A stretch of DNA of 53,993 nucleotides from an uncultured Bacteroidota bacterium. GTDB lineage: Bacteria > Bacteroidota > Bacteroidia > Bacteroidales > DTGW01. This document shows positions 2,337-18,401 of this stretch, in pieces. The DNA lies in the NCBI GenBank assembly GCA_963726845.1, contig CAVSGB010000263.1:1-53993 (forward strand), in the 5' to 3' direction. The position numbers and the translations under genes were made by a program. Numbering within the stretch: position 1 is the stretch's first letter; every line of letters starts with the position of its first letter. The notes below the pieces were generated by a model. The model was not told the DNA's origin, searched no databases, and saw only the letters and a program-made list of their open reading frames with translations.

Positions 2337-2934
2337 TTTGATAATAATTGCTGGATGCAATGGTGCGGGTAAGTCAACATTTGCTTCTTCTTTTTTACCT
2401 GAGGGATTGAACTCTTTTGATTATGACAGAATATTTTTAGAGAATTATAATAGTTTTCCTGATAGTGAATTGAGAGAAGAATTTGCAAAAAACGAGACAT
2501 CAAAGTACTTTGAGCAATCTATTGACAAGGCATTGGTAAATAAAACAGATTTTTGCTTCGAAACAAATTTTGATGCACATCCATTATATTGGGCAGAAAA
2601 ATTTAGAAAGAATGGATTTCAAATTAATCTGATTTTTTTTTGTTTAGATAATCAGGAAGTAGCAAGACATAGAATCCAGGTACGTACTGAATTTAAAGGC
2701 CTTTTCGTTGATAACGAAACAATTGATTTAAAGTGGAAAGCCGGATATAAAAACACAAATCTTCATTTTCGATTTTTTGACAATATCCTGATTGTTGACA
2801 ATTCAAAACAAAATGAAACTTACACAAATATTCTACAGATTGAAAAAGGGAAAATTATTATGATGACTGATAATATACCAGATTATTTTGAACATCGACT
2901 TCCGGATATTTATAAACTTATTAAGACAAAATAA
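2329..2934 (+). CDS. Zeta-toxin-like P-loop kinase / AAA ATPase
   Basis: N-terminal IIIAGCNGAGKST Walker A, FETN and ARHRIQVR motifs typical of short zeta-toxin-family proteins. Confidence 0.8.
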   Translation: MPDLIIIAGCNGAGKSTFASSFLPEGLNSFDYDRIFLENYNSFPDSELREEFAKNETSKYFEQSIDKALVNKTDFCFETNFDAHPLYWAEKFRKNGFQINLIFFCLDNQEVARHRIQVRTEFKGLFVDNETIDLKWKAGYKNTNLHFRFFDNILIVDNSKQNETYTNILQIEKGKIIMMTDNIPDYFEHRLPDIYKLIKTK

Positions 2935-2939
2935 TGCAC

Positions 2940-3079
2940 TATTGCCAACAGCTGGCTCATACCCAATGCGGGTTTCAGAAGGTTTGCAAACGCAGTGGCA
3001 CGCGTGCACGGCATTACCAGCGGACAATGACGCGCCCCGCACTCCCGCACTATTAGTAGCCGGAGAACGTTGTACACAA
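2940..3079 (+). repeat. attC-like recombination site / long hairpin repeat, copy 2
   Basis: Starts 5 bp after the toxin stop with TATTGCCAAC, the exact reverse complement of GTTGGCAATA at 2096-2105. Same arms and unpaired C as copy 1. Ends GTTGTACACAA. Confidence 0.72.
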
Positions 3080-3367
3080 CCCTCTCTAGCCCAGAAACAG
3101 GATTCATTTCCACAGCTAACGGTGGTGCTTAGAACAGACTTTTATTTTAAATTTGAAGGCCCTATGCAAGGCCGATTTTTGAACTGGTGCGTCATAGCCC
3201 GGGTGCAATCCTGGTTAGAATGTGAAAAGCCCTTCTGATTTAGCAGAAAGGCTTTGAGATGATTTCAGTGGTGGTCACGCCTAAAGCGAGAACCCCGTTC
3301 ATAATATTATCACGTCAAAGATACATTCTCTTAGGGCATTTTTATTAACCAATTAAAAAATGTTTTT
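3080..3367 (+). ncRNA. Candidate IS110 bridge/seek RNA region
   Basis: Lies in the non-coding end of an IS110. More GC-rich than the surroundings, with several stem-loops (CCAC-agctaacg-GTGG; AAAGCC(C)TTCTG..CAGAAAGGCTTT). Expression is inferred only. Confidence 0.5.
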
Positions 3368-4711
3368 ATGACTAAGAAAAATGTATCAATGGAAGTAATC
3401 AACCCAAATGCAGCAGGGATTGATATTGGAAGCCGTTCACACTATGTAGCAATAGGGCAAGGCGATGAAGATGTAAAAGAATTTGGTGTTTATAATGAAG
3501 ATTTACAGGCACTTTCTCAATGGCTATTAGATAATGAAATTAAAACAGTAGCCATGGAAAGTACAGGTACTTATTGGCAAAATCTTTATGCCGTCCTTCA
3601 ATCATCGGGATTAGAAGTAATACTATGCAATGGTAAGTTCACAAAAAACATTAAGGGCAGAAAAAGCGATGTTCAGGACTGTCAATGGATACAGAAGCTT
3701 CACACGTTAGGGTTATTAAGCGGAAGTTTCTTGCCCGATGAAGCAACGGAACATTTAAGGACATACTGCCGCCACCGGTTTAATCTGTTGGAGCAAGCAG
3801 CAGACACTACCCGAAAAATGCAAAAATACTTACGCCTGCTAAATTTGCGATTAGATGTAGTGGTGAAAGATGTAACCGGTTTAACCGGTTTGTCAATTAT
3901 AGAAGCCATCTGCAAAGGAGAAATCAATCCAGGGACACTCGCCTCGCTAAGAAATGGGAACTGTAAAAAATCAGAAGCAGAAATAGCCAAAGCACTTCAA
4001 AACAATGGCAGGAAGGATTATTTATTTGCCCTTAAACACGAATATCAAATGTATTTGAACTTTCAGTCAAAAATAAAAGAGTGTGATGTAGAAATTGAAA
4101 AAATGCTCAATGAACAAATCAATATTGATGATAATAAAAAACAGCATTACATAGATAAAAAGGTTCACAAAAGGGTAAATAAAAATACCCCTAAAAACAT
4201 AGATATTAATTTATTGTCATACCAATATTTTGAAGGCGTTGATTTGCTCGCTATTGAAGGGGTGAGCTATTCAACTGTACTTACCCTTATAAGTGAGGTT
4301 GGGACAGGGATCCATAAATTTCAGTCAGCAAAACAATTTACCAGTTGGCTGAGGCTATCACCTAATAATAAAATTAGCGGTGGAAAAGTATTAAGCAACA
4401 GAATACCTAAAGGTAGCAATAGGCTGAAAATTGCCCTTAGAAACGCTGCAAATTCTATTGGAAATTTAAAAGACACTGCATTGTCGAATTTCTTCAAAAG
4501 AATTGCATTTAGAAAAGGCCGTGTATCTGCCATATCTGCAACAGCAAGAAAGTTGGCTATTATTATTTGGAATATGATAGTAAAAAGAGTTCCTTATAAA
4601 CCAGAAACCGAATACCAATTTCTGGATCAAAAAAGGAAGAAAATAACCCAGATGAAAAAACTAATCACTAAGTTTGATATTACAATTAATGATTTAAGTT
4701 TTCAGCTGTAA
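3368..4711 (+). CDS. IS110-family (DEDD) transposase/recombinase
   Basis: AGIDIGS, VAMESTGTYW and KSDVQDC (DEDD RuvC-like domain). C-terminal LSPNNKISGGKVL and ATARKLA (Transposase_20). Confidence 0.95.
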   Translation: MTKKNVSMEVINPNAAGIDIGSRSHYVAIGQGDEDVKEFGVYNEDLQALSQWLLDNEIKTVAMESTGTYWQNLYAVLQSSGLEVILCNGKFTKNIKGRKSDVQDCQWIQKLHTLGLLSGSFLPDEATEHLRTYCRHRFNLLEQAADTTRKMQKYLRLLNLRLDVVVKDVTGLTGLSIIEAICKGEINPGTLASLRNGNCKKSEAEIAKALQNNGRKDYLFALKHEYQMYLNFQSKIKECDVEIEKMLNEQINIDDNKKQHYIDKKVHKRVNKNTPKNIDINLLSYQYFEGVDLLAIEGVSYSTVLTLISEVGTGIHKFQSAKQFTSWLRLSPNNKISGGKVLSNRIPKGSNRLKIALRNAANSIGNLKDTALSNFFKRIAFRKGRVSAISATARKLAIIIWNMIVKRVPYKPETEYQFLDQKRKKITQMKKLITKFDITINDLSFQL

Positions 4712-4900
4712 ATCTGCAACTTATGAAAACGTTAGTCATAAGTGTAAAAATCGTGCAACTCGACAGATACGTGCAAAATTGAGAGACTGATAAGCGTAAT
4801 TTAGCTCTTTGATAGGTTGGTGCAAATTGGATGAATTTATTTTGTTTTTTTCTTCCCGCTTTTGCCCTTTTGGGGCAATTAGGACGAGTCAATAGCAACC

Positions 4901-4976
4901 CCAACCCACATTGCAGCACATTTGCAAGCCCACACAAGCCGACCCGCAGACCAAAGGCTTGCAAAAGAGCTGCAAT
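4901..4976 (+). repeat. Structured hairpin repeat family B, copy 1
   Basis: Stem TTGCAGC-ac-aTTTGCAAGCC ... GGCTTGCAAAa-ga-GCTGCAA. Loop CACAAGCC..AC..ACCAAA shared with 9645-9722. Confidence 0.65.
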
Positions 4977-5093
4977 TTTGCCGATGCACACAGTGCTGTT
5001 AATAACTTCCTGACAACAAATCAAAAATTTATTTTCCGAATTCAATCCATCTTTGTAATTTTGACAAAAAGATTCAAAACAAAAAGATTCAAA

Positions 5094-5399
5094 ATGGACA
5101 ACTTTGGGGATACCATCAGGAAGTTAAGGGAAGAAAAGGAATTGCCATTGCGGACAGTTGCTGCTTATCTTGACATTGACCAAGCTATTTTAAGTAAGAC
5201 AGAACGTGGACAACGTAAAGCGACACGGGAGCAAATTGTAAAACTTGCAGAGTTTTTTAAGGTGAAAGAAGATGATTTATTGATCGCGTGGCTTTCGGAT
5301 AAATTGGTTTATGAAGTGGCAGACGAACAAATTGCATTGAAAGCATTGCAGGTAGCAGAGGAGAAAGTAAAGTATATTAATAAAAATAAGAAAATATAA
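5094..5399 (+). CDS. XRE-family HTH regulator (possible R-M controller)
   Basis: MDNFGDTIRKLREEKELPLRTVAAYLDIDQAILSKTERGQRKATREQ is an HTH_3 signature. True start is probably ATG 5094. 4 bp upstream of mod. Confidence 0.85.
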   Translation: MDNFGDTIRKLREEKELPLRTVAAYLDIDQAILSKTERGQRKATREQIVKLAEFFKVKEDDLLIAWLSDKLVYEVADEQIALKALQVAEEKVKYINKNKKI

Positions 5400-5403
5400 A
5401 AAC

Positions 5404-7131
5404 ATGCCAGCACTCCATTTCAAAGGGAAAACATTTGTACAAAACCACCATTTGGCGGTTAAGTTTCATCAATTAGTGCCGAAAAAAGAATTGAGTTTAA
5501 CCGACAAAGTTTCATTGCACGATAACCTTATTATACAAGGAGACAATCTGAAAGCATTGAAGGCATTGCTTCCAACTTATGCCGGAAAGATTAATTGCAT
5601 TTTTATTGACCCTCCATATAATACGGGCAATGACATTGCTGAAGGTAAAGGTTGGATTTACAATGACAATGTAAACAGTCCAATGATAAAAGAATGGTTA
5701 GGTAAAGAGGTTAACCTAGAAGATTTAACAAGGCACGATAAATGGCTTTGTATGATGATGCCAAGATTAAAATTATTAAGAGAACTTTTACACGAAAATG
5801 GTGCAATATTCATTACACTTGATGACATTGAAATCCATAGATGTAAACTTTTGATGGATGAGATTTTCGGCGAGGAAAATATCGTTTCAAACATCGTATG
5901 GCAAGCAAGAAAATCCGTTCAGAATGATACTGATATAAGTTCTTCTCATAATCACGTTTTAGTTTATGCAAAAAATCGGAGACAAGAAGAAAGAAGATTG
6001 AAGAAAAGCAATGTTAAGAAATGGCATACAATGGATGGCTTTGTCTTTAATCCACTAGAATTGGACAAATCTAAATTTTCAAATCCCGATAAAGACCCAA
6101 GAGGATTATGGAAGGCTGACCCTTTTGATGCACCTGGTATTCGTAAAAACTTAGAATATGATATTGTAAATCCTAATACAGGTGAAGTTTACACACCACC
6201 AAAAGGAAGACATTGGGGAAACGAAGAGAAAAACTATTTAGCTTTCTTAAAAGACAATAGAATACTTTTTGGCAAATCTGGTAAAAGTGGACCGCAATTA
6301 AAAGTATTTTGGGATGAGAAAAAAGAGTTTGGCGAAATTGAAACAACTTGGTGGGGTGAGGGTGCAATGGAAACTTATATTGAGGATGGAATTGATGAAG
6401 AAACAGCAGAAAAGTTTACAAGCTATGGTACAACAACAAAGGGTTCTCAATTACTTCAAAAAATATTTAATGGTGAAAAGGTTTTTAATAACCCAAAACC
6501 GATAGAACTGCTTAAACACATACTTAAAATAGCAACAAAAAAGGATGCTATAATTCTTGACAGCTTTGCTGGCTCAGGAACTACTGCACACGCAGTTTTG
6601 GACTTAAACAAAGAAGATGAAGGCAATCGAAAATTTATTTTAGTAGAAATGGAAAATTACGCCAATTCCATTACGGCAGAGAGAGTTCGGAGAGTAATTA
6701 AAGGTGTAAAGACTGCAAAAGAAGATTTTTTGAAAAACGGATTAGCTGGCACGTTTAGTTATTTTGAGTTAGGTGAAACCATAGAAATGGAAAATTTGCT
6801 TAAAGGAAAAAACTTACCTTCATTTACAGAGTTTGCTCGCTATCTTTTTTACACAGCCACAGGCGAAGAATTCAACGAAAAATTAGTAAATGAAAAAACT
6901 GGTTTTATAGGTGAGAGCATAAATTATGAAGCATATCTATTTTACAAACCCGATTTGGAATGGTTGAAGAAAAACGCTTTGACATTAGAACTTTGCAAGT
7001 CATTACCTAAACATAATGGTAAACAGCGTTTAGTTTTCGCACCTGCAAAATATGTTGATGATATTACTTTGCTGGAACATAGAATTGACTTTTGCCAGTT
7101 ACCTTATGAAATTTACAGGATACAGAAATGA
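5404..7131 (+). CDS. mod: Type III R-M adenine methyltransferase (Mod)
   Basis: GDNLKALK, IFIDPPYNTG, PKPIELL and ILDSFAGSGTTAHAV motifs (beta-class N6 MTase). Overlaps res by 4 bp (ATGA). Confidence 0.92.
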   Translation: MPALHFKGKTFVQNHHLAVKFHQLVPKKELSLTDKVSLHDNLIIQGDNLKALKALLPTYAGKINCIFIDPPYNTGNDIAEGKGWIYNDNVNSPMIKEWLGKEVNLEDLTRHDKWLCMMMPRLKLLRELLHENGAIFITLDDIEIHRCKLLMDEIFGEENIVSNIVWQARKSVQNDTDISSSHNHVLVYAKNRRQEERRLKKSNVKKWHTMDGFVFNPLELDKSKFSNPDKDPRGLWKADPFDAPGIRKNLEYDIVNPNTGEVYTPPKGRHWGNEEKNYLAFLKDNRILFGKSGKSGPQLKVFWDEKKEFGEIETTWWGEGAMETYIEDGIDEETAEKFTSYGTTTKGSQLLQKIFNGEKVFNNPKPIELLKHILKIATKKDAIILDSFAGSGTTAHAVLDLNKEDEGNRKFILVEMENYANSITAERVRRVIKGVKTAKEDFLKNGLAGTFSYFELGETIEMENLLKGKNLPSFTEFARYLFYTATGEEFNEKLVNEKTGFIGESINYEAYLFYKPDLEWLKKNALTLELCKSLPKHNGKQRLVFAPAKYVDDITLLEHRIDFCQLPYEIYRIQK

Positions 7132-9641
7132 AGCTAAAGCACTATCAGGAAAAAGTTTTAAAGGAACTGAAAGTTTATTTGAGTTCCTTGTCTGACTTCA
7201 AAGCTAAATACGAAAAGGCATTGGAGTTTGATGCTGATATGGCAAGGGACTACAATTTCCCTAAGCATGCCTGGGAACAAAGTACAGGAAGAATAATATA
7301 TTATTCTAAAACAAACGGACTACACGAACCGCTCCCCGATATTTATCTTAAAGTGCCGACAGGTGGAGGAAAAACGTTGGTGGCTTGTCACGCTATTGAT
7401 TATATTCAAAAATCTTTTTTAAAAAAACAAGCAGGACTGGTATTGTGGATTGTGCCTTCTACACAAATTTACAGGCAAACAATTTCAGCATTAAAAAACC
7501 GTGAACATCCATATAGGCAAATCCTTGATATTTCAAGCGGAGGCAGAACACTCATCAAAGAAAAAACTGAAATGTTCAATCGTTTGGATGTGGACGAACA
7601 TCTTGTTGTATTAATTTTGATGCTGCCTTCTGCAAATCGCCTGAACAGAGAAACACTTAAAGTTTTCAGGGATGCGGGAGGTTTTACAGATTTTTTCCCG
7701 CCTGAAGATAATTATCCTGCACAAGAGGCATTAGTCAAACTTATTCCAAATTTAGATTGCTTCACAACAGAAGGAGAAGTTTTCGGAATACAAATAAAAA
7801 CTTCGCTCGGAAATACTTTAAAATTATTGAAACCGCTTGTGATAATTGACGAGGGGCACAGGGCATACGGAGAACAGGCAAGAAACACAGTAAGAAATTT
7901 TAATCCTTCTTTTATTCTTGAACTTTCGGCAACACCACCACCAAACAGCAATGAGTTGGTGAAAATAACTGGGCGTGAATTGCACGAAGAAGAAATGATA
8001 AAATTAGACATCCATCTTACCAATAAAACAAGTTTAGATTGGCAGGATACAATGTTGGCGAGTTATGAAAAAAGAAACGAGTTAGAAAAGAAAGCAAAAG
8101 AATATGAAGGCAAAACAGGTGAATATATCCGCCCTATTTGCCTGATACAGGCGGAACGCACAGGAAAAGACCAACGGGAAAAGAATTTCATACACGCAGA
8201 AGATGTTAAAGAATTTTTAATCAAGAAATGTAACATTCCTGAAAAGCATATTGCAATTAAATCAAGTGAGAAAGACGATATTGAAGGAATTAATTTGTTT
8301 GCTCCCGATTGCGACATACGCTACATCATTACCAAACAGGCATTGCAAGAGGGTTGGGATTGTTCTTTTGCTTACATTCTTACCATTCTGACAAATCCAG
8401 CATCATCAACAGGGATTACACAATTAGTCGGAAGAATTTTAAGACAACCCTTTGCACGAAAAACAAAAATCAAAGAATTGGACGAGTGTTACGTTTATAC
8501 ATTCCGTCAGAACGCAAGCGCATTGGTAAGAGAAATAAAATTGGGTTTAGAAGATGAAGGGCTTGGCGACATTGCCGGCAGAGTTGTAAACGATGAAGGT
8601 GATGCAGGTGAAGGAATACTAAAAGACAGGGACACAAAGTATCGTGTTGGCTTCAAAAAATATGAAGGGAAAATTTATTTGCCAAAATTTGTAATGCAGG
8701 AAAAAGGAAGTTGGCGTGATATGAATTTTGAAGTGGATATATTAAGTGAAATTAATTGGGAAACCGTCAATATTTATGAACTAAAAAATATTTCCCTACA
8801 AAAGAAAAAAGACAAGGAACAGGAAATTGTTTTGGGTTTGAGTGATGAAAAAAAAGAATTGCTGAAAGAAACAGGAAGAGCAGAAAAAACAGGAGCATTA
8901 GAAATTGATGAAGTGTTTTTAACGAGACAAATTACCGAGATAATTCCGAACCCGTGGATTTGCTACCAATTAGGTGTCAAAGCAGTGGAAATGGTTTTAC
9001 AAAAATACGACCACAACACAGTTGCATCAAATTTTGTTTTCGTAATTGAAGAACTAAAAAAGATTTTAGATAATGAGCGAAACCGATTATCAGAGCAGGT
9101 TTTCAGAAAATTGATTGAAAAGAAAAAATTACTTTTCTTTCTTCTTACTGATATAGGAGGTTTTGTTCTTCCATCAAGAATAAAAGTGAAAAGCAACAAA
9201 CAGTTGGTTCGTAACGATAACACACCAATTCAAAAATCGTTGTTTGACTATGTTCCCGAAGAAAATATTAACGATCTCGAAAAATCCGTTGCCATTTATC
9301 TTGACGAACAGGAAAAGCTTTTATGGTGGTATCGCAATATGAGCAGACAGGACTATCACATACAAGGATGGAAGCGACACAAAATTTATCCTGACTTCAT
9401 TGCAGCAGATAAGAAAAAAGATAAAGACGACTACGAAACAGTTTATGTGCTTGAGACAAAAGGCATACACTTGAAAAATGAGGACACAAAATATAAACAG
9501 GATGTTTTCAAACTTTGCAATGAATTAGGAGCAAAGAAACCTTGGAAAGAATTGTTTAACGAGTTTCCCGACCATGACTTTGAATTTCAGGTTGTGTTTG
9601 AGGACGAGTGGCAGAATAAAATTAACCAACTAATTGGATGA
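7128..9641 (+). CDS. res: Type III R-M restriction subunit (Res), SF2 helicase + nuclease
   Basis: VPTGGGKT, IIDEGH, LSAT, LQEGWD, QLVGRILR, and C-terminal YPDF..LETKG PD-(D/E)xK motif. Confidence 0.9.
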   Translation: MKLKHYQEKVLKELKVYLSSLSDFKAKYEKALEFDADMARDYNFPKHAWEQSTGRIIYYSKTNGLHEPLPDIYLKVPTGGGKTLVACHAIDYIQKSFLKKQAGLVLWIVPSTQIYRQTISALKNREHPYRQILDISSGGRTLIKEKTEMFNRLDVDEHLVVLILMLPSANRLNRETLKVFRDAGGFTDFFPPEDNYPAQEALVKLIPNLDCFTTEGEVFGIQIKTSLGNTLKLLKPLVIIDEGHRAYGEQARNTVRNFNPSFILELSATPPPNSNELVKITGRELHEEEMIKLDIHLTNKTSLDWQDTMLASYEKRNELEKKAKEYEGKTGEYIRPICLIQAERTGKDQREKNFIHAEDVKEFLIKKCNIPEKHIAIKSSEKDDIEGINLFAPDCDIRYIITKQALQEGWDCSFAYILTILTNPASSTGITQLVGRILRQPFARKTKIKELDECYVYTFRQNASALVREIKLGLEDEGLGDIAGRVVNDEGDAGEGILKDRDTKYRVGFKKYEGKIYLPKFVMQEKGSWRDMNFEVDILSEINWETVNIYELKNISLQKKKDKEQEIVLGLSDEKKELLKETGRAEKTGALEIDEVFLTRQITEIIPNPWICYQLGVKAVEMVLQKYDHNTVASNFVFVIEELKKILDNERNRLSEQVFRKLIEKKKLLFFLLTDIGGFVLPSRIKVKSNKQLVRNDNTPIQKSLFDYVPEENINDLEKSVAIYLDEQEKLLWWYRNMSRQDYHIQGWKRHKIYPDFIAADKKKDKDDYETVYVLETKGIHLKNEDTKYKQDVFKLCNELGAKKPWKELFNEFPDHDFEFQVVFEDEWQNKINQLIG

Positions 9642-16892: not shown

Positions 16893-18042
16893 TCAGGCAG
16901 GTTCAAAAATGGACTTCACATTTTTTAGCTCCTCAATAATCGCTATAGACTGGGGGCAATGCATTTCGCACTGGCCACATTCGATACAACTGGAAGCCAT
17001 TTGTTCTGGCTGCAACATACGATGATACATTTCTTCCTTGCCAAACATAAAATAATTGTTATAAAAAGTAAAACATCCCGAAATATTTACACCTGACGGG
17101 CAGGGCATACAATAGCCACAAGCTGTACAATTAACTTTTATTCTTTGCCTGTAAATATTCTTAACCTCTTCAATGACATAGCTCTCTTCGCATGTAAAAG
17201 AGTTTTCAGTAGCAGTCCGAGCTATTTTTATATTTTCAACCACCTGTTCCATACTATTCATGCCGCTTAACAGTAAAGATACTTCCGGATGATCCCATAC
17301 CCACCTCAAAGCCCACTCAGCGGGAGTCCTTTTCGGATTTGCATTATTAAAAGCATTTTGAACTGCCTCCGGAAGATTTGCAGCAAGCTTGCCACCTCTG
17401 AGAGGTTCCATAATGGTTAACCCCAGTCCCTTATTTGCTGCATAATCAAAGCCTTTTCTTCCAGCTTGAAAATCTTCATCCAAATAATTGTACTGTATTT
17501 GACAGAATGACCAATCATATCCATCTACGATAGCATTAAAATTCTCTTGTATGTCGTGGTATGAAAAACCAGCATGTTTAATCCGCCCATCCCGTATTGC
17601 CTGGTTCTAAAAACTCAGCGATACCAGCTTCCTTGACATTTTTCCATGAAGAGCTATTTAAAGCATGAACAAGGTAAAAATCGATGGTATCAGTTTCCAG
17701 GCGTTCTAATTGTTCGTTTAAATATTTATCCATATCGGCCCGGGTTTTAATCAACCAGCTTGGAAGTTTGGTGGCGATTTTAACTTTTTCACGATAGCCA
17801 TTTTTAAGTACCTTACCAACAAAAGGTTCGCTTTGTCCTCCCGAACCCAATCCTTTGCCGTGATAAGGATAAGCTGTATCAATGTAGTTTACTCCTTCAT
17901 CAATGGCATATCGGATAAGTTTAGTTGACAATTCCTCGTCAATTTTCGATGGATCACCTCCTGGCAAAAGCGGAAGCCGCATGCATCCGAAGCCAAGAAT
18001 AGAAACCATTTCATTCGTTTTGCCAAATTTTCTATAAAGCAT
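16893..18042 (-). CDS. Aldo/keto reductase with C-terminal Fe-S dicluster (split by +1 frameshift ~17605)
   Basis: LGFGCMRLP, IDTAYPYH and MEPLRGGKL; CTACGYCMPCP and CIECGQCEMHCPQ. Removing one base restores FLDQAIRDGRIKHAGFS. Confidence 0.85.
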
Positions 18043-18122
18043 ATTATTTCACCCTTTCTTTAATATTTAGTTCATCCTTTTTCAATTTCAACAACATCGA
18101 AATTAGGCCTAATTTTAAAATA

Positions 18123-18401
18123 TTGCAAAATATTAAAATAGGAATATTCTTTATAAATAACCAGGTTAGTATTTATCCATTCCCAGCAAATGATATACTT
18201 AATGTGAAATTGCCAAAAGGATCCAAAAATATAATGATTGAAAAAATAGATTTAACGGGATGGATTAAAAAATCAGGAATTATTAATAACGGGGAATTAA
18301 TTGGCAAAATTTCTACTGGTTAATTACCAAAAGGAAAGTATATTTGTCGTGTTAGGACTTTAAATGAATTCCTTTAAACAACTAAAATTATTATTCAATA
18401 A
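18123..18401 (+). pseudogene. Isolated, decayed T9SS type A C-terminal sorting domain
   Basis: SIYPFPANDILNV...*LPKGKYICRV...*TTKIIIQ*, with two in-frame stops and no passenger domain. Confidence 0.6.

Follow-up and report, generated by a model that had tools for sequence, protein, structure and literature searches.

The window analysed here is a 53,993-nucleotide (nt) stretch of DNA from an uncultured Bacteroidota bacterium (Bacteroidales, DTGW01; assembly GCA_963726845.1, contig CAVSGB010000263.1, forward strand). Positions 3080 to 4741 hold an intact, recently active insertion sequence of the IS110 family, which belongs to a lineage spread through Bacteroidota and stands beside a GC-rich, attC-like repeat. 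We read it, with a probability of roughly 85%, as an RNA-guided element aimed at the outer edge of such attC-like repeats. The element, its ends and its target are arranged as follows.

3080-4741, plus strand: intact IS110-family insertion sequence, 1,662 base pairs (bp) including the right-hand AA; ends taken from own-genome junctions (three left, two right).
3078-3079, plus strand: left copy of the core dinucleotide AA, the crossover region; the right copy is 4740-4741.
3368-4711, plus strand: transposase (recombinase) gene, 447 amino acids (aa), identified with Pfam and NCBIfam.
3116-3121, plus strand: CTAACG, left arm of a subterminal inverted repeat; the right arm CGTTAG is 4730-4735.
4730-4741, plus strand: right end CGTTAGTCATAA; comprises the inverted repeat's right arm CGTTAG, the donor's left half and the core AA (4740-4741).
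2937-3077, plus strand: attC-like repeat copy 2, the target; its 3' end is CGTT (3068-3071), followed by six bases (3072-3077).
4742-4752, plus strand: right half of the target (GTGTAAAAATC), from junction comparison.

The 447-aa protein matches PF01548 (E = 5.2e-22, residues 16-157) and PF02371 (E = 1.6e-12) in Pfam, and scores 220.9 bits against the NCBIfam model NF033542, 'IS110 family RNA-guided transposase', which has a cut-off of 140. The residues of the N-terminal DEDD (RuvC-like) domain are readable in the translation as DIGS, ME and DVQD (DxxD), and the C-terminal region contains RLSPNNKISGG (L-P-x4-SG; LSPNNKISG), to be compared with the family's serine motif GL-P----S(t)G as quoted in PMC11187229. 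The gene is preceded by 288 nt of non-coding DNA and followed by only 30 nt, which is the layout of the IS110 group; a non-coding end of about 290 bp had already been noticed in an earlier reading of the window made from the letters alone (hereafter the sequence-only reading). The AA core at both junctions and a fixed position and orientation of insertion, found in the three own-genome copies and in 52 of 56 informative relatives, are the behaviour expected of the family, whose members insert site-specifically in one orientation, lack terminal inverted repeats and show a short core at each junction in place of a duplication. The element is thus an IS110-family member by protein and by behaviour.

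Three near-identical copies of the element (97.7-100%) exist in this one genome, each at a different attC-like site. Besides the window copy, contig C265 has a second full copy (97.7% identity over 2933-4742), C90 has a third left end, and C238 has a right-hand fragment situated at the contig end. The three left junctions (window, C265 and C90) begin to agree only at CAA^CCCTCTC (the caret marks the junction here and below), and the two right junctions split after GTCATAA^G. The start of the element is 8 nt downstream of GTT, and CGTT stands exactly at 3068-3071, so the earlier statement that the element begins within about 10 bp of the GTT of repeat copy 2 was accurate. The same reading had left the crossover open between AA and AACGTT. 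AA is the sole sequence common to the left and right junctions, and a retargeted relative (element D, described below) uses GT instead; we therefore place the crossover in AA and drop AACGTT. Aligning homologous copies with their flanks, as had been suggested, gave the ends at 3080-4741 and the target [A/C]CGTT-N6-NA; the elements of the relatives measure 1,632-1,685 bp. Tandem copies in which a right end abuts a left end are present at L081/L082, L095, L097, L099, L102 and L103. The circle joint (right end to left end) and the empty site are both missing from the contigs of four sequencing runs; these are contigs, so that the absence carries no weight. A metagenome contig (run X1) carries another copy, whose right flank equals that of the window for the first 10 bases only (GTGTAAAAAT) and then differs, which hints at repeated use of a similar right half-site. 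At L081 and L082, the opening bases of a left end stand directly behind the right end, and another right end lies some 100 nt beyond them; the arrangement resembles a micro-element or an insertion nested in the target-like right end.

The target repeats form a GC-rich family with a unit of about 130 nt; in the own genome, BLAST gives at least 58 matches to it and a sequence pattern gives 105. Their terminal sequence is ...AGCCGCGAACGTT, and the consensus shows the CGTT end followed by RGSNGCMA. Repeat copy 1 folds into a long imperfect hairpin with its CCAAC/GTTGG ends paired, as in the inverted repeats of attC. No integron integrase scores above the cut-off in the own genome (376 contigs, a 76% complete assembly); the best TIGR02249 scores are 115 and 99 bits against a cut-off of 265, and they fall on a frameshifted generic tyrosine recombinase. 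The repeat is therefore named attC-like. Two further elements of the same genome also lie just after the CGTT of attC-like repeats, namely element B, with three copies and 66% nucleotide identity, and element C, with two copies of 392-394 bp that lack a transposase. The stretch at 4840-5030 is GC-rich and looks repeat-like by eye, yet it is unique in the genome (its sole BLAST match is itself); copy 2 hence seems to be the last repeat of a small array.

Scanning one genome per species, we collected 79 Bacteroidota loci with 62-93% aa identity (full-length). The pattern GTT-N6-NA immediately before the left end, with A required at -1, is present at 50 of the 79. The 29 misses comprise 13 copies of element D, 10 loci without a left flank, two (L072 and L079) with the same target and a variant CTAACG anchor, and four others in which CGTT is shifted or absent (L039; L066 and L069, which share one site; L086). 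When only the 56 informative loci are considered (left flank of at least 14 nt, element D left out), 52 have GTT-N6-NA sites. Positions left free in the pattern are also constrained among these 56 sites, with C at -12 in 53, R at -8 in 56, A at -2 in 47, G/A at -4 in 56 and C/T at -3 in 55. CGTT is followed by A in 30 targets and by G in 26, and the six bases separating it from the core vary freely, even within the copies of one element (L029-L034). The lineage inserts at a fixed position beside attC-like repeats. In the relatives, the target reads [A/C]CGTT-N6-NA and the right end ...ACGTTAGT[C/T]A[T/G]AA, so that the right end mimics the left half of the target. This explains the pattern AACGTT-N3-CA-N-AA, which had been noticed at both junctions of the window and is real rather than a chance likeness. 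The hairpin foot is long-range paired in 25 of 48 left flanks, and 25 of 48 also reach z <= -2 against shuffles; the target is accordingly a sequence motif that usually, though not always, lies at the foot of a hairpin. As the 7-bp GTTRRRY box is untouched, it is plausible that the insertion leaves the site intact.

The 288-nt non-coding end contains a conserved RNA structure, a target loop and a donor loop, with the following parts.

3159-3337, plus strand: predicted bridge RNA of about 180 nt (RNAalifold consensus, covariation).
3148-3155, plus strand: promoter box TAAATTTG, which we take to be a -7-type box.
3159-3163/3333-3337: helix P1, closing the entire RNA.
3170-3174/3212-3216: helix P2, enclosing the target loop around hairpin P3.
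3175-3184, plus strand: 5' strand of the target loop, U-rich, reading GATTTTTGAAC together with G3174 of helix P2; probable right-target guide.
3185-3190/3197-3201: hairpin P3, within the target loop.
3202-3211, plus strand: 3' strand of the target loop, GGTGCAATCC; left-target guide GCAA at 3205-3208 (core included), then TCC.
3217-3223/3323-3329: helix P4, enclosing an optional hairpin and the donor loop around hairpin P5.
3224-3253: optional hairpin, inside P4.
3261-3266, plus strand: GATTTC, within the 5' strand of the donor loop; repeats the left-end box in sense.
3270-3279/3287-3296: hairpin P5, within the donor loop.
3297-3308, plus strand: 3' strand of the donor loop, GTTCATAATATT; left-donor guide CATAA at 3300-3304, a sense copy of the right end.
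3339-3343, plus strand: T-run, 3' of P1.
3105-3110, plus strand: internal left-end box CATTTC, 26-31 nt inside the left end.

The five-helix consensus was obtained with RNAalifold from an alignment of 45 non-redundant left ends. In its helices 98.3% of the cells are paired, and 22 of the 31 pairs show double-sided changes; when the partners are slid by 1-3 columns, pairing falls to 30-47%. A structured RNA in the long non-coding end, with five covarying helices, is what is expected of a bridge RNA or seekRNA. Helix P2 is built of conserved G.U pairs, and the RNA is therefore read from the plus strand. In 40 of the 45 relatives, a TAnnTTnn box lies no more than 28 nt before P1, at 11-15 nt in most cases; 14 have the exact form TAnnTTTG, and in 38 a T-run of at least four directly follows P1. 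We built a covariance model from 46 sequences; its matches in the own genome are exactly the eight copies expected, and in an order-wide sample it has matches in nine of 100 other genomes, a patchy spread as expected of an insertion sequence. Rfam yields no family at gathering score across the whole window, and only chance matches of at most 19 bits between 3060 and 3400 at E <= 10. The two copies of element C (L010 at C12:~4520-4913 and L013 at C241:~17750-18140) consist of a left end with the full bridge RNA (169.5 and 162.2 bits, respectively, with the covariance model). Their right ends match their own donor guides, and both sit at attC-like CGTT-N6-(A/C)A sites; they look like RNA-carrying mini-elements mobilised in trans.

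Three loop strands of the RNA (3202-3211, 3297-3308 and 3261-3266) covary with DNA of the target or the donor, and always in the sense orientation. The left-donor guide matches the right tip of the element exactly in 38 of 38 relatives, with the variants CAGAA, CATAA, TAGAA and TATAA; CAAGAT in element B and CACAA at an out-of-sample locus add to these. The sequence-only reading had pointed to CGTTCATAA (3296-3304) as resembling the right end, and its coordinates proved exact for what is now the best-supported guide. On the opposite side of the donor loop, the strand 3261-3266 is identical to the left-end box in at least five of six bases in 44 of 45 relatives (14 distinct RNA 6-mers; 0 of 10,000 permutations); no conserved site for an antisense partner of this strand was found anywhere in the elements. 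In the target loop, the 3' strand matches, as a sense copy, the left flank, AA and the first bases of the element. The final four bases agree with the flank at 33 of 53 sites, and 17 variant guides, CAATTA, GTCA, GTAA, GCCA and GCTA among them, follow their own flanks (0 of 10,000 permutations). The strand then runs on into the first bases of the element itself, TCC in the window, and these three bases past the core equal the element start in 39 of 53 sites, or in 51 of 53 with U.G allowed. All three sense covariations recur with new variants in loci that were found with the RNA model and lie outside its building. A scan for mutual information between the columns of the RNA and the flanks was noisy at a sample of 45 related sequences and recovered only these three signals; tests of cognate against non-cognate pairs took its place. 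The covariation of loops with target and donor, which had been named as the thing to examine, is thus present, as expected of bridge RNAs and seekRNAs, and supports the proposal of an RNA-guided element, together with the naturally reprogrammed relative described next.

Element D is present in 13 copies (loci L095-L107) in one Cytophagales assembly and has 63% aa identity. Its sites read ...ACCTATAAG-GT^, at the 3' foot of an unrelated hairpin repeat that resembles a repetitive extragenic palindrome (REP), and its core is GT. The loops of its RNA have changed with it. The 3' target strand, AAAGGTTTTC, equals the left junction AAGGT^TTTC at 9 of 9 bases, the 3' donor strand CAGTTT (a CAGTT variant) matches the right tip GTCAGT^T, and the 5' donor strand and the left-end box have AGTAC in common. 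At five D loci, the right end directly abuts the left end in a tandem that mimics the circle junction. Copies at sites unrelated to the repeat, or loops that do not covary, had been named beforehand as evidence against RNA guidance; element D does occupy an unrelated site, and its loops are correspondingly different. At L124 (G015:C665:393-566), which the model matches weakly (54 bits), the 3' target strand reads AAAGTAGCA and repeats AAAGTAGC, located some 45 nt upstream; the locus may be one more retargeted relative, whose left end would be very short.

For the right half of the target, the probable guide is the 5' strand of the target loop. The 11-nt string GATTTTTGAAC is complementary to the top strand right of the insertion at 9 of 11 bases (4742-4752), and L119 shows a striking exact match of 10 nt. 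Variants gave p of about 0.1 in a cruder first test. With new loci added, the longest complementary run averages 4.70 in cognate and 4.03 in non-cognate pairs (0 of 5,000 permutations over all pairs), and p = 0.008 for the 22 variants only. A-richness at +5 to +11 is general among target sites, empty ones included (98 sites). Other guide assignments were tried and rejected. The P1-P2 joining strand ATGCAA resembles flank plus core and does not follow variant flanks; the 5' target strand as a sense copy of the bases left of CGTT shows no covariation; and the P3 loop GTCATA shows none either, as a guide for the element start or for the flank. The last of these (3191-3196), which had been thought to resemble the right end, is a hairpin loop of freely variable sequence, unrelated to the ends.

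Taken together, we propose that the element would express a discrete RNA of about 180 nt (3159-3337), apparently from a -7-type promoter of its own and ending in the U-run, in which one outer helix would enclose two internal-loop domains, for target and donor respectively. In the target loop, the 3' strand would pair with the left flank and core and continue for three bases that match the element start, in a handshake-like extension, and the U-rich 5' strand would probably pair with the A-rich top strand right of the insertion point. Recombination would take place at AA in [A/C]CGTT-N6-AA, at the outer foot of the attC-like hairpin; the right end of the element (ACGTTAGTCATAA) repeats this target motif. 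The comparisons above show the ends, the target motif, the structure of the RNA and the three sense covariations with their natural reprogramming, whereas the start and end of the transcript, the pairing of RNA with DNA, the role of the 5' target strand and the reader of CGTT are the parts that we infer.

Several observations weigh against this reading. The window's own site agrees with the left-target guide at only three of seven bases, and those of the two sister copies at five of seven; the window copy occupies a sub-optimal site. The guide itself is short, with some 3-5 informative bases, and the invariant CGTT, 9-12 nt left of the crossover, lies beyond it and is matched by no strand of the target loop. 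On the right side of the target, the support is statistical and shared base composition could account for the signal, and the 5' target strand is near-invariant, even in element D with its T-rich right flanks. No antisense guide for the right half of the donor was found; a reading of both DNA strands would thus have a statistical right-target guide, and in the place of the right-donor guide a sense match to the internal left-end box. None of 500 shuffles reaches any of the five structure measures of the RNA, but many of the aligned sequences are kin, so that the shuffle tests in general overstate significance; a single-sequence fold of 3066-3370 is no better than shuffles (z = -0.24). A scan for sigma-70 promoters and canonical terminators, which does not cover Bacteroidota promoters, found none in the non-coding region, and the TAnnTTTG-type box is presumably the Bacteroidota -7 element. 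The metatranscriptome run X20 gives contigs, not reads, only at 3775-3964 and 4127-4289 within the transposase gene; none covers 3159-3337, and since these are contigs the absence carries no weight.

The unmatched CGTT leads to the account in which the protein and the DNA structure mainly choose the target, through CGTT(R)G and/or the hairpin foot, the protein reading the target motif as it would read its counterpart in the right end, and the RNA adds only a few bases near the crossover. We regard this as a real possibility, though not the favoured one. CGTT is near-invariant at a fixed distance, with C at -12 common without being demanded by the search pattern; the right end bears the same motif as the target; the six bases between CGTT and the core are free to vary among the copies of one element; and the foot is paired in about half of the flanks. 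A preprint on ISPpu10 also reports a target stem-loop as a second layer of specificity (bioRxiv 10.64898/2026.03.19.712850). However, such a division of labour would not replace the RNA, as the guide covariation and the reprogramming are strong, and the foot is not seen in 23 of 48 flanks, while the target of element D has no CGTT at all. Another proposal, that the conserved upstream structure is a mere cis-acting leader controlling transposase expression and the matches to the ends are by-products, can appeal to the structure ending 30 nt before the start codon and to the following T-run, which could attenuate read-through. But three loop strands follow DNA that lies outside the RNA, host flanks included, the transposase-less mini-elements retain the full RNA, and related families have been found RNA-guided by experiment, which together make this proposal extremely improbable.

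The sequence-only reading had seen a CCAC/GTGG hairpin upstream of the gene, with a loop CTAACG complementary to CGTTAG at the right end, and had taken the loop for a guide. The complementarity is exact, whereas the stem is confined to the closest relatives. All 45 aligned relatives have GCTAACG unchanged, with a complement in the right end and in roughly half of the targets (those reading CGTTAG); the pair has changed in a compensatory manner in element D (AGTTAG/CTAACT), and no other explanation of how the target CGTT is read has been found so far. Nevertheless, the loop falls outside the supported RNA, with the conserved -7 box and helix P1 some 40 nt downstream of it; CGTTG is about as frequent as CGTTA in the targets; and element D retains the motif although its target (ACCTATAAGGT) has no complement, so that the motif follows the donor end rather than the target. 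A guide role for CTAACG is accordingly quite unlikely. Because element D changes both arms jointly while its target lacks the motif, the 6-bp pair, which is asymmetric at 36 nt from the left tip and 6 nt from the right tip, is best read as the subterminal inverted repeat of the donor; in the IS110 group such repeats are absent, or short and imperfect. Within RNA guidance itself, the logic might also differ from that of IS621, with a donor loop that reads one strand, a product-like target loop and a mode of seeking hairpin feet. On such a scheme, the donor-loop strands would copy, in element order, the internal box of the left end and the tip of the right end, tying together the two ends of the integrated element instead of the halves of a circle junction; the flanking inverted repeat CGTTAG/CTAACG would close the displaced strand, and the target loop would read the product-like left junction of flank, core and first element bases. 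We put this forward tentatively and think it rather doubtful. If true, this mode and the target-mimicking right end would suit single-stranded, folded attC and REP DNA.

To our knowledge, nearly all mechanistic understanding of IS110 elements comes from IS621 and a few IS1111 elements of Proteobacteria. In the case of IS621, according to Durrant et al. 2024 (PMC11208160) and Hiraizumi et al. 2024 (PMC11208158), the left guides pair with the bottom strand (sense) and the right guides with the top strand, core included. The element described here is similar in its DEDD plus serine recombinase, its long non-coding end upstream of the gene, its single RNA with target and donor internal loops, its dinucleotide core at both junctions, its sense left guides and its handshake-like extension toward the other partner. 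However, the sense guides lie on the 3' strands of the loops instead of the 5' strands as in IS621, and in place of an antisense right-donor guide, which was not found here, there is a second sense strand, matching a box that lies 26-31 nt in from the left tip. The RNA apparently has an internal promoter of its own, and a junction promoter was not seen; in addition, the core is AA rather than CT and the left-target guide is short. A phmmer comparison of the 447-aa protein with the solved IS621 chains detects no similarity at E <= 0.001, and a PDB sequence search is without a match. In its way of working the element resembles the bridge-RNA and seekRNA systems, and its guide RNA is a clear variant of the known design.

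The IS1111 elements that target attC (ISKpn4, ISPst6 and ISPa25) and their seekRNAs (Siddiquee et al. 2024, PMC11187229) resemble the present lineage in using one attC end in one orientation, in having subterminal inverted repeats, and in placing the strand that pairs with the top strand 5' of the strand that pairs with the bottom strand, an order that would also hold here. In contrast, their non-coding region with the RNA lies downstream of the gene instead of upstream, their transposases measure 315-330 aa instead of 447 aa, and the hosts given for them are Proteobacteria. The element works like this group, yet with its upstream RNA and its 447-aa protein it is not a member. In ISEc21, which is of the IS110 type, the bottom-strand match is 5' of the top-strand match, the reverse of the IS1111 order (PMC11187229). 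The window RNA does not follow this IS110-group order: in each of its loops, the sense guide occupies the 3' strand. ISEc21 shares only 25% identity over 97 aa with the window protein; the length of 447 aa falls within the 395-455 aa quoted for the subgroup that contains IS110 itself.

The closest parallel in layout is WP_008786676.1 (L113), from Citrobacter/Enterobacter plasmids, a 446-aa protein with 41.6% aa identity over 90% of the protein. Its upstream non-coding region carries a CAGTGG-hairpin-CCCGTTCAG donor-loop module, and the 3' loop strand GTAAAAAAACA is a sense copy of its own left flank, with the ends read by eye. It differs in being inserted in an IS3-family gene and not at an attC-like site, and it is too diverged for the RNA model (no match at E <= 0.01). 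Since this element shares the donor-loop module and the flank copy, the layout is probably a trait of a larger branch with long transposases. In ISPpu10, a 'sequence-structure dual match' is described (bioRxiv 10.64898/2026.03.19.712850), whereby a GC-rich stem-loop next to the target contributes specificity in addition to RNA pairing; the host and the target are different, and such a role for the attC-like hairpin here is conjectural. We found nothing on this lineage in the literature on attC-targeting IS110 elements of Bacteroidota or on bridge-RNA mini-elements, and the supplementary catalogues of the 2024 papers may list it.

RNA-guided IS110 recombinases are under development as programmable genome-insertion tools. 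The present lineage offers a second solution found in nature: dozens of its examples covary, and at least one has been cleanly retargeted without human hand. Its design traits are sense guides on the opposite strands, an extra guide for an internal donor box, and a short target guide combined with a fixed CGTT at a hairpin foot. It also shows that an IS110-type element has settled in the attC-like cassette arrays of Bacteroidota, a colonisation separate from that by the IS1111-attC group in Proteobacteria, and that RNA-only mini-elements apparently ride on the same system. The carriers include cultured strains, namely Daejeonella oryzae DSM 19973, Rhodocytophaga aerolata KACC 12507, Fulvivirga sediminis, Portibacter marinus and Mariniflexile sp., so that the predictions are directly testable.

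The neighbouring genes of the window are as follows. Just upstream of repeat copy 1, 206-1564 on the minus strand encodes a 452-aa DDE transposase (PF01609); another mobile element, unrelated to the first, thus stands beside the small array. In the cassette that separates repeat copies 1 and 2 (2169-2934), a gene specifies a protein of 201 aa that matches Zeta-toxin/AAA kinases (PF06414, 6.8e-10). Its start is overlapped by a 55-aa open reading frame without a Pfam match; the two may form a toxin-antitoxin cassette. Downstream of the element, 5094-9641 holds an HTH_3 regulator, a 575-aa N6/N4 DNA methylase (PF01555, 2e-36) and an 837-aa type III restriction res-subunit/helicase (PF04851), which by their domain matches make up a predicted restriction-modification module.

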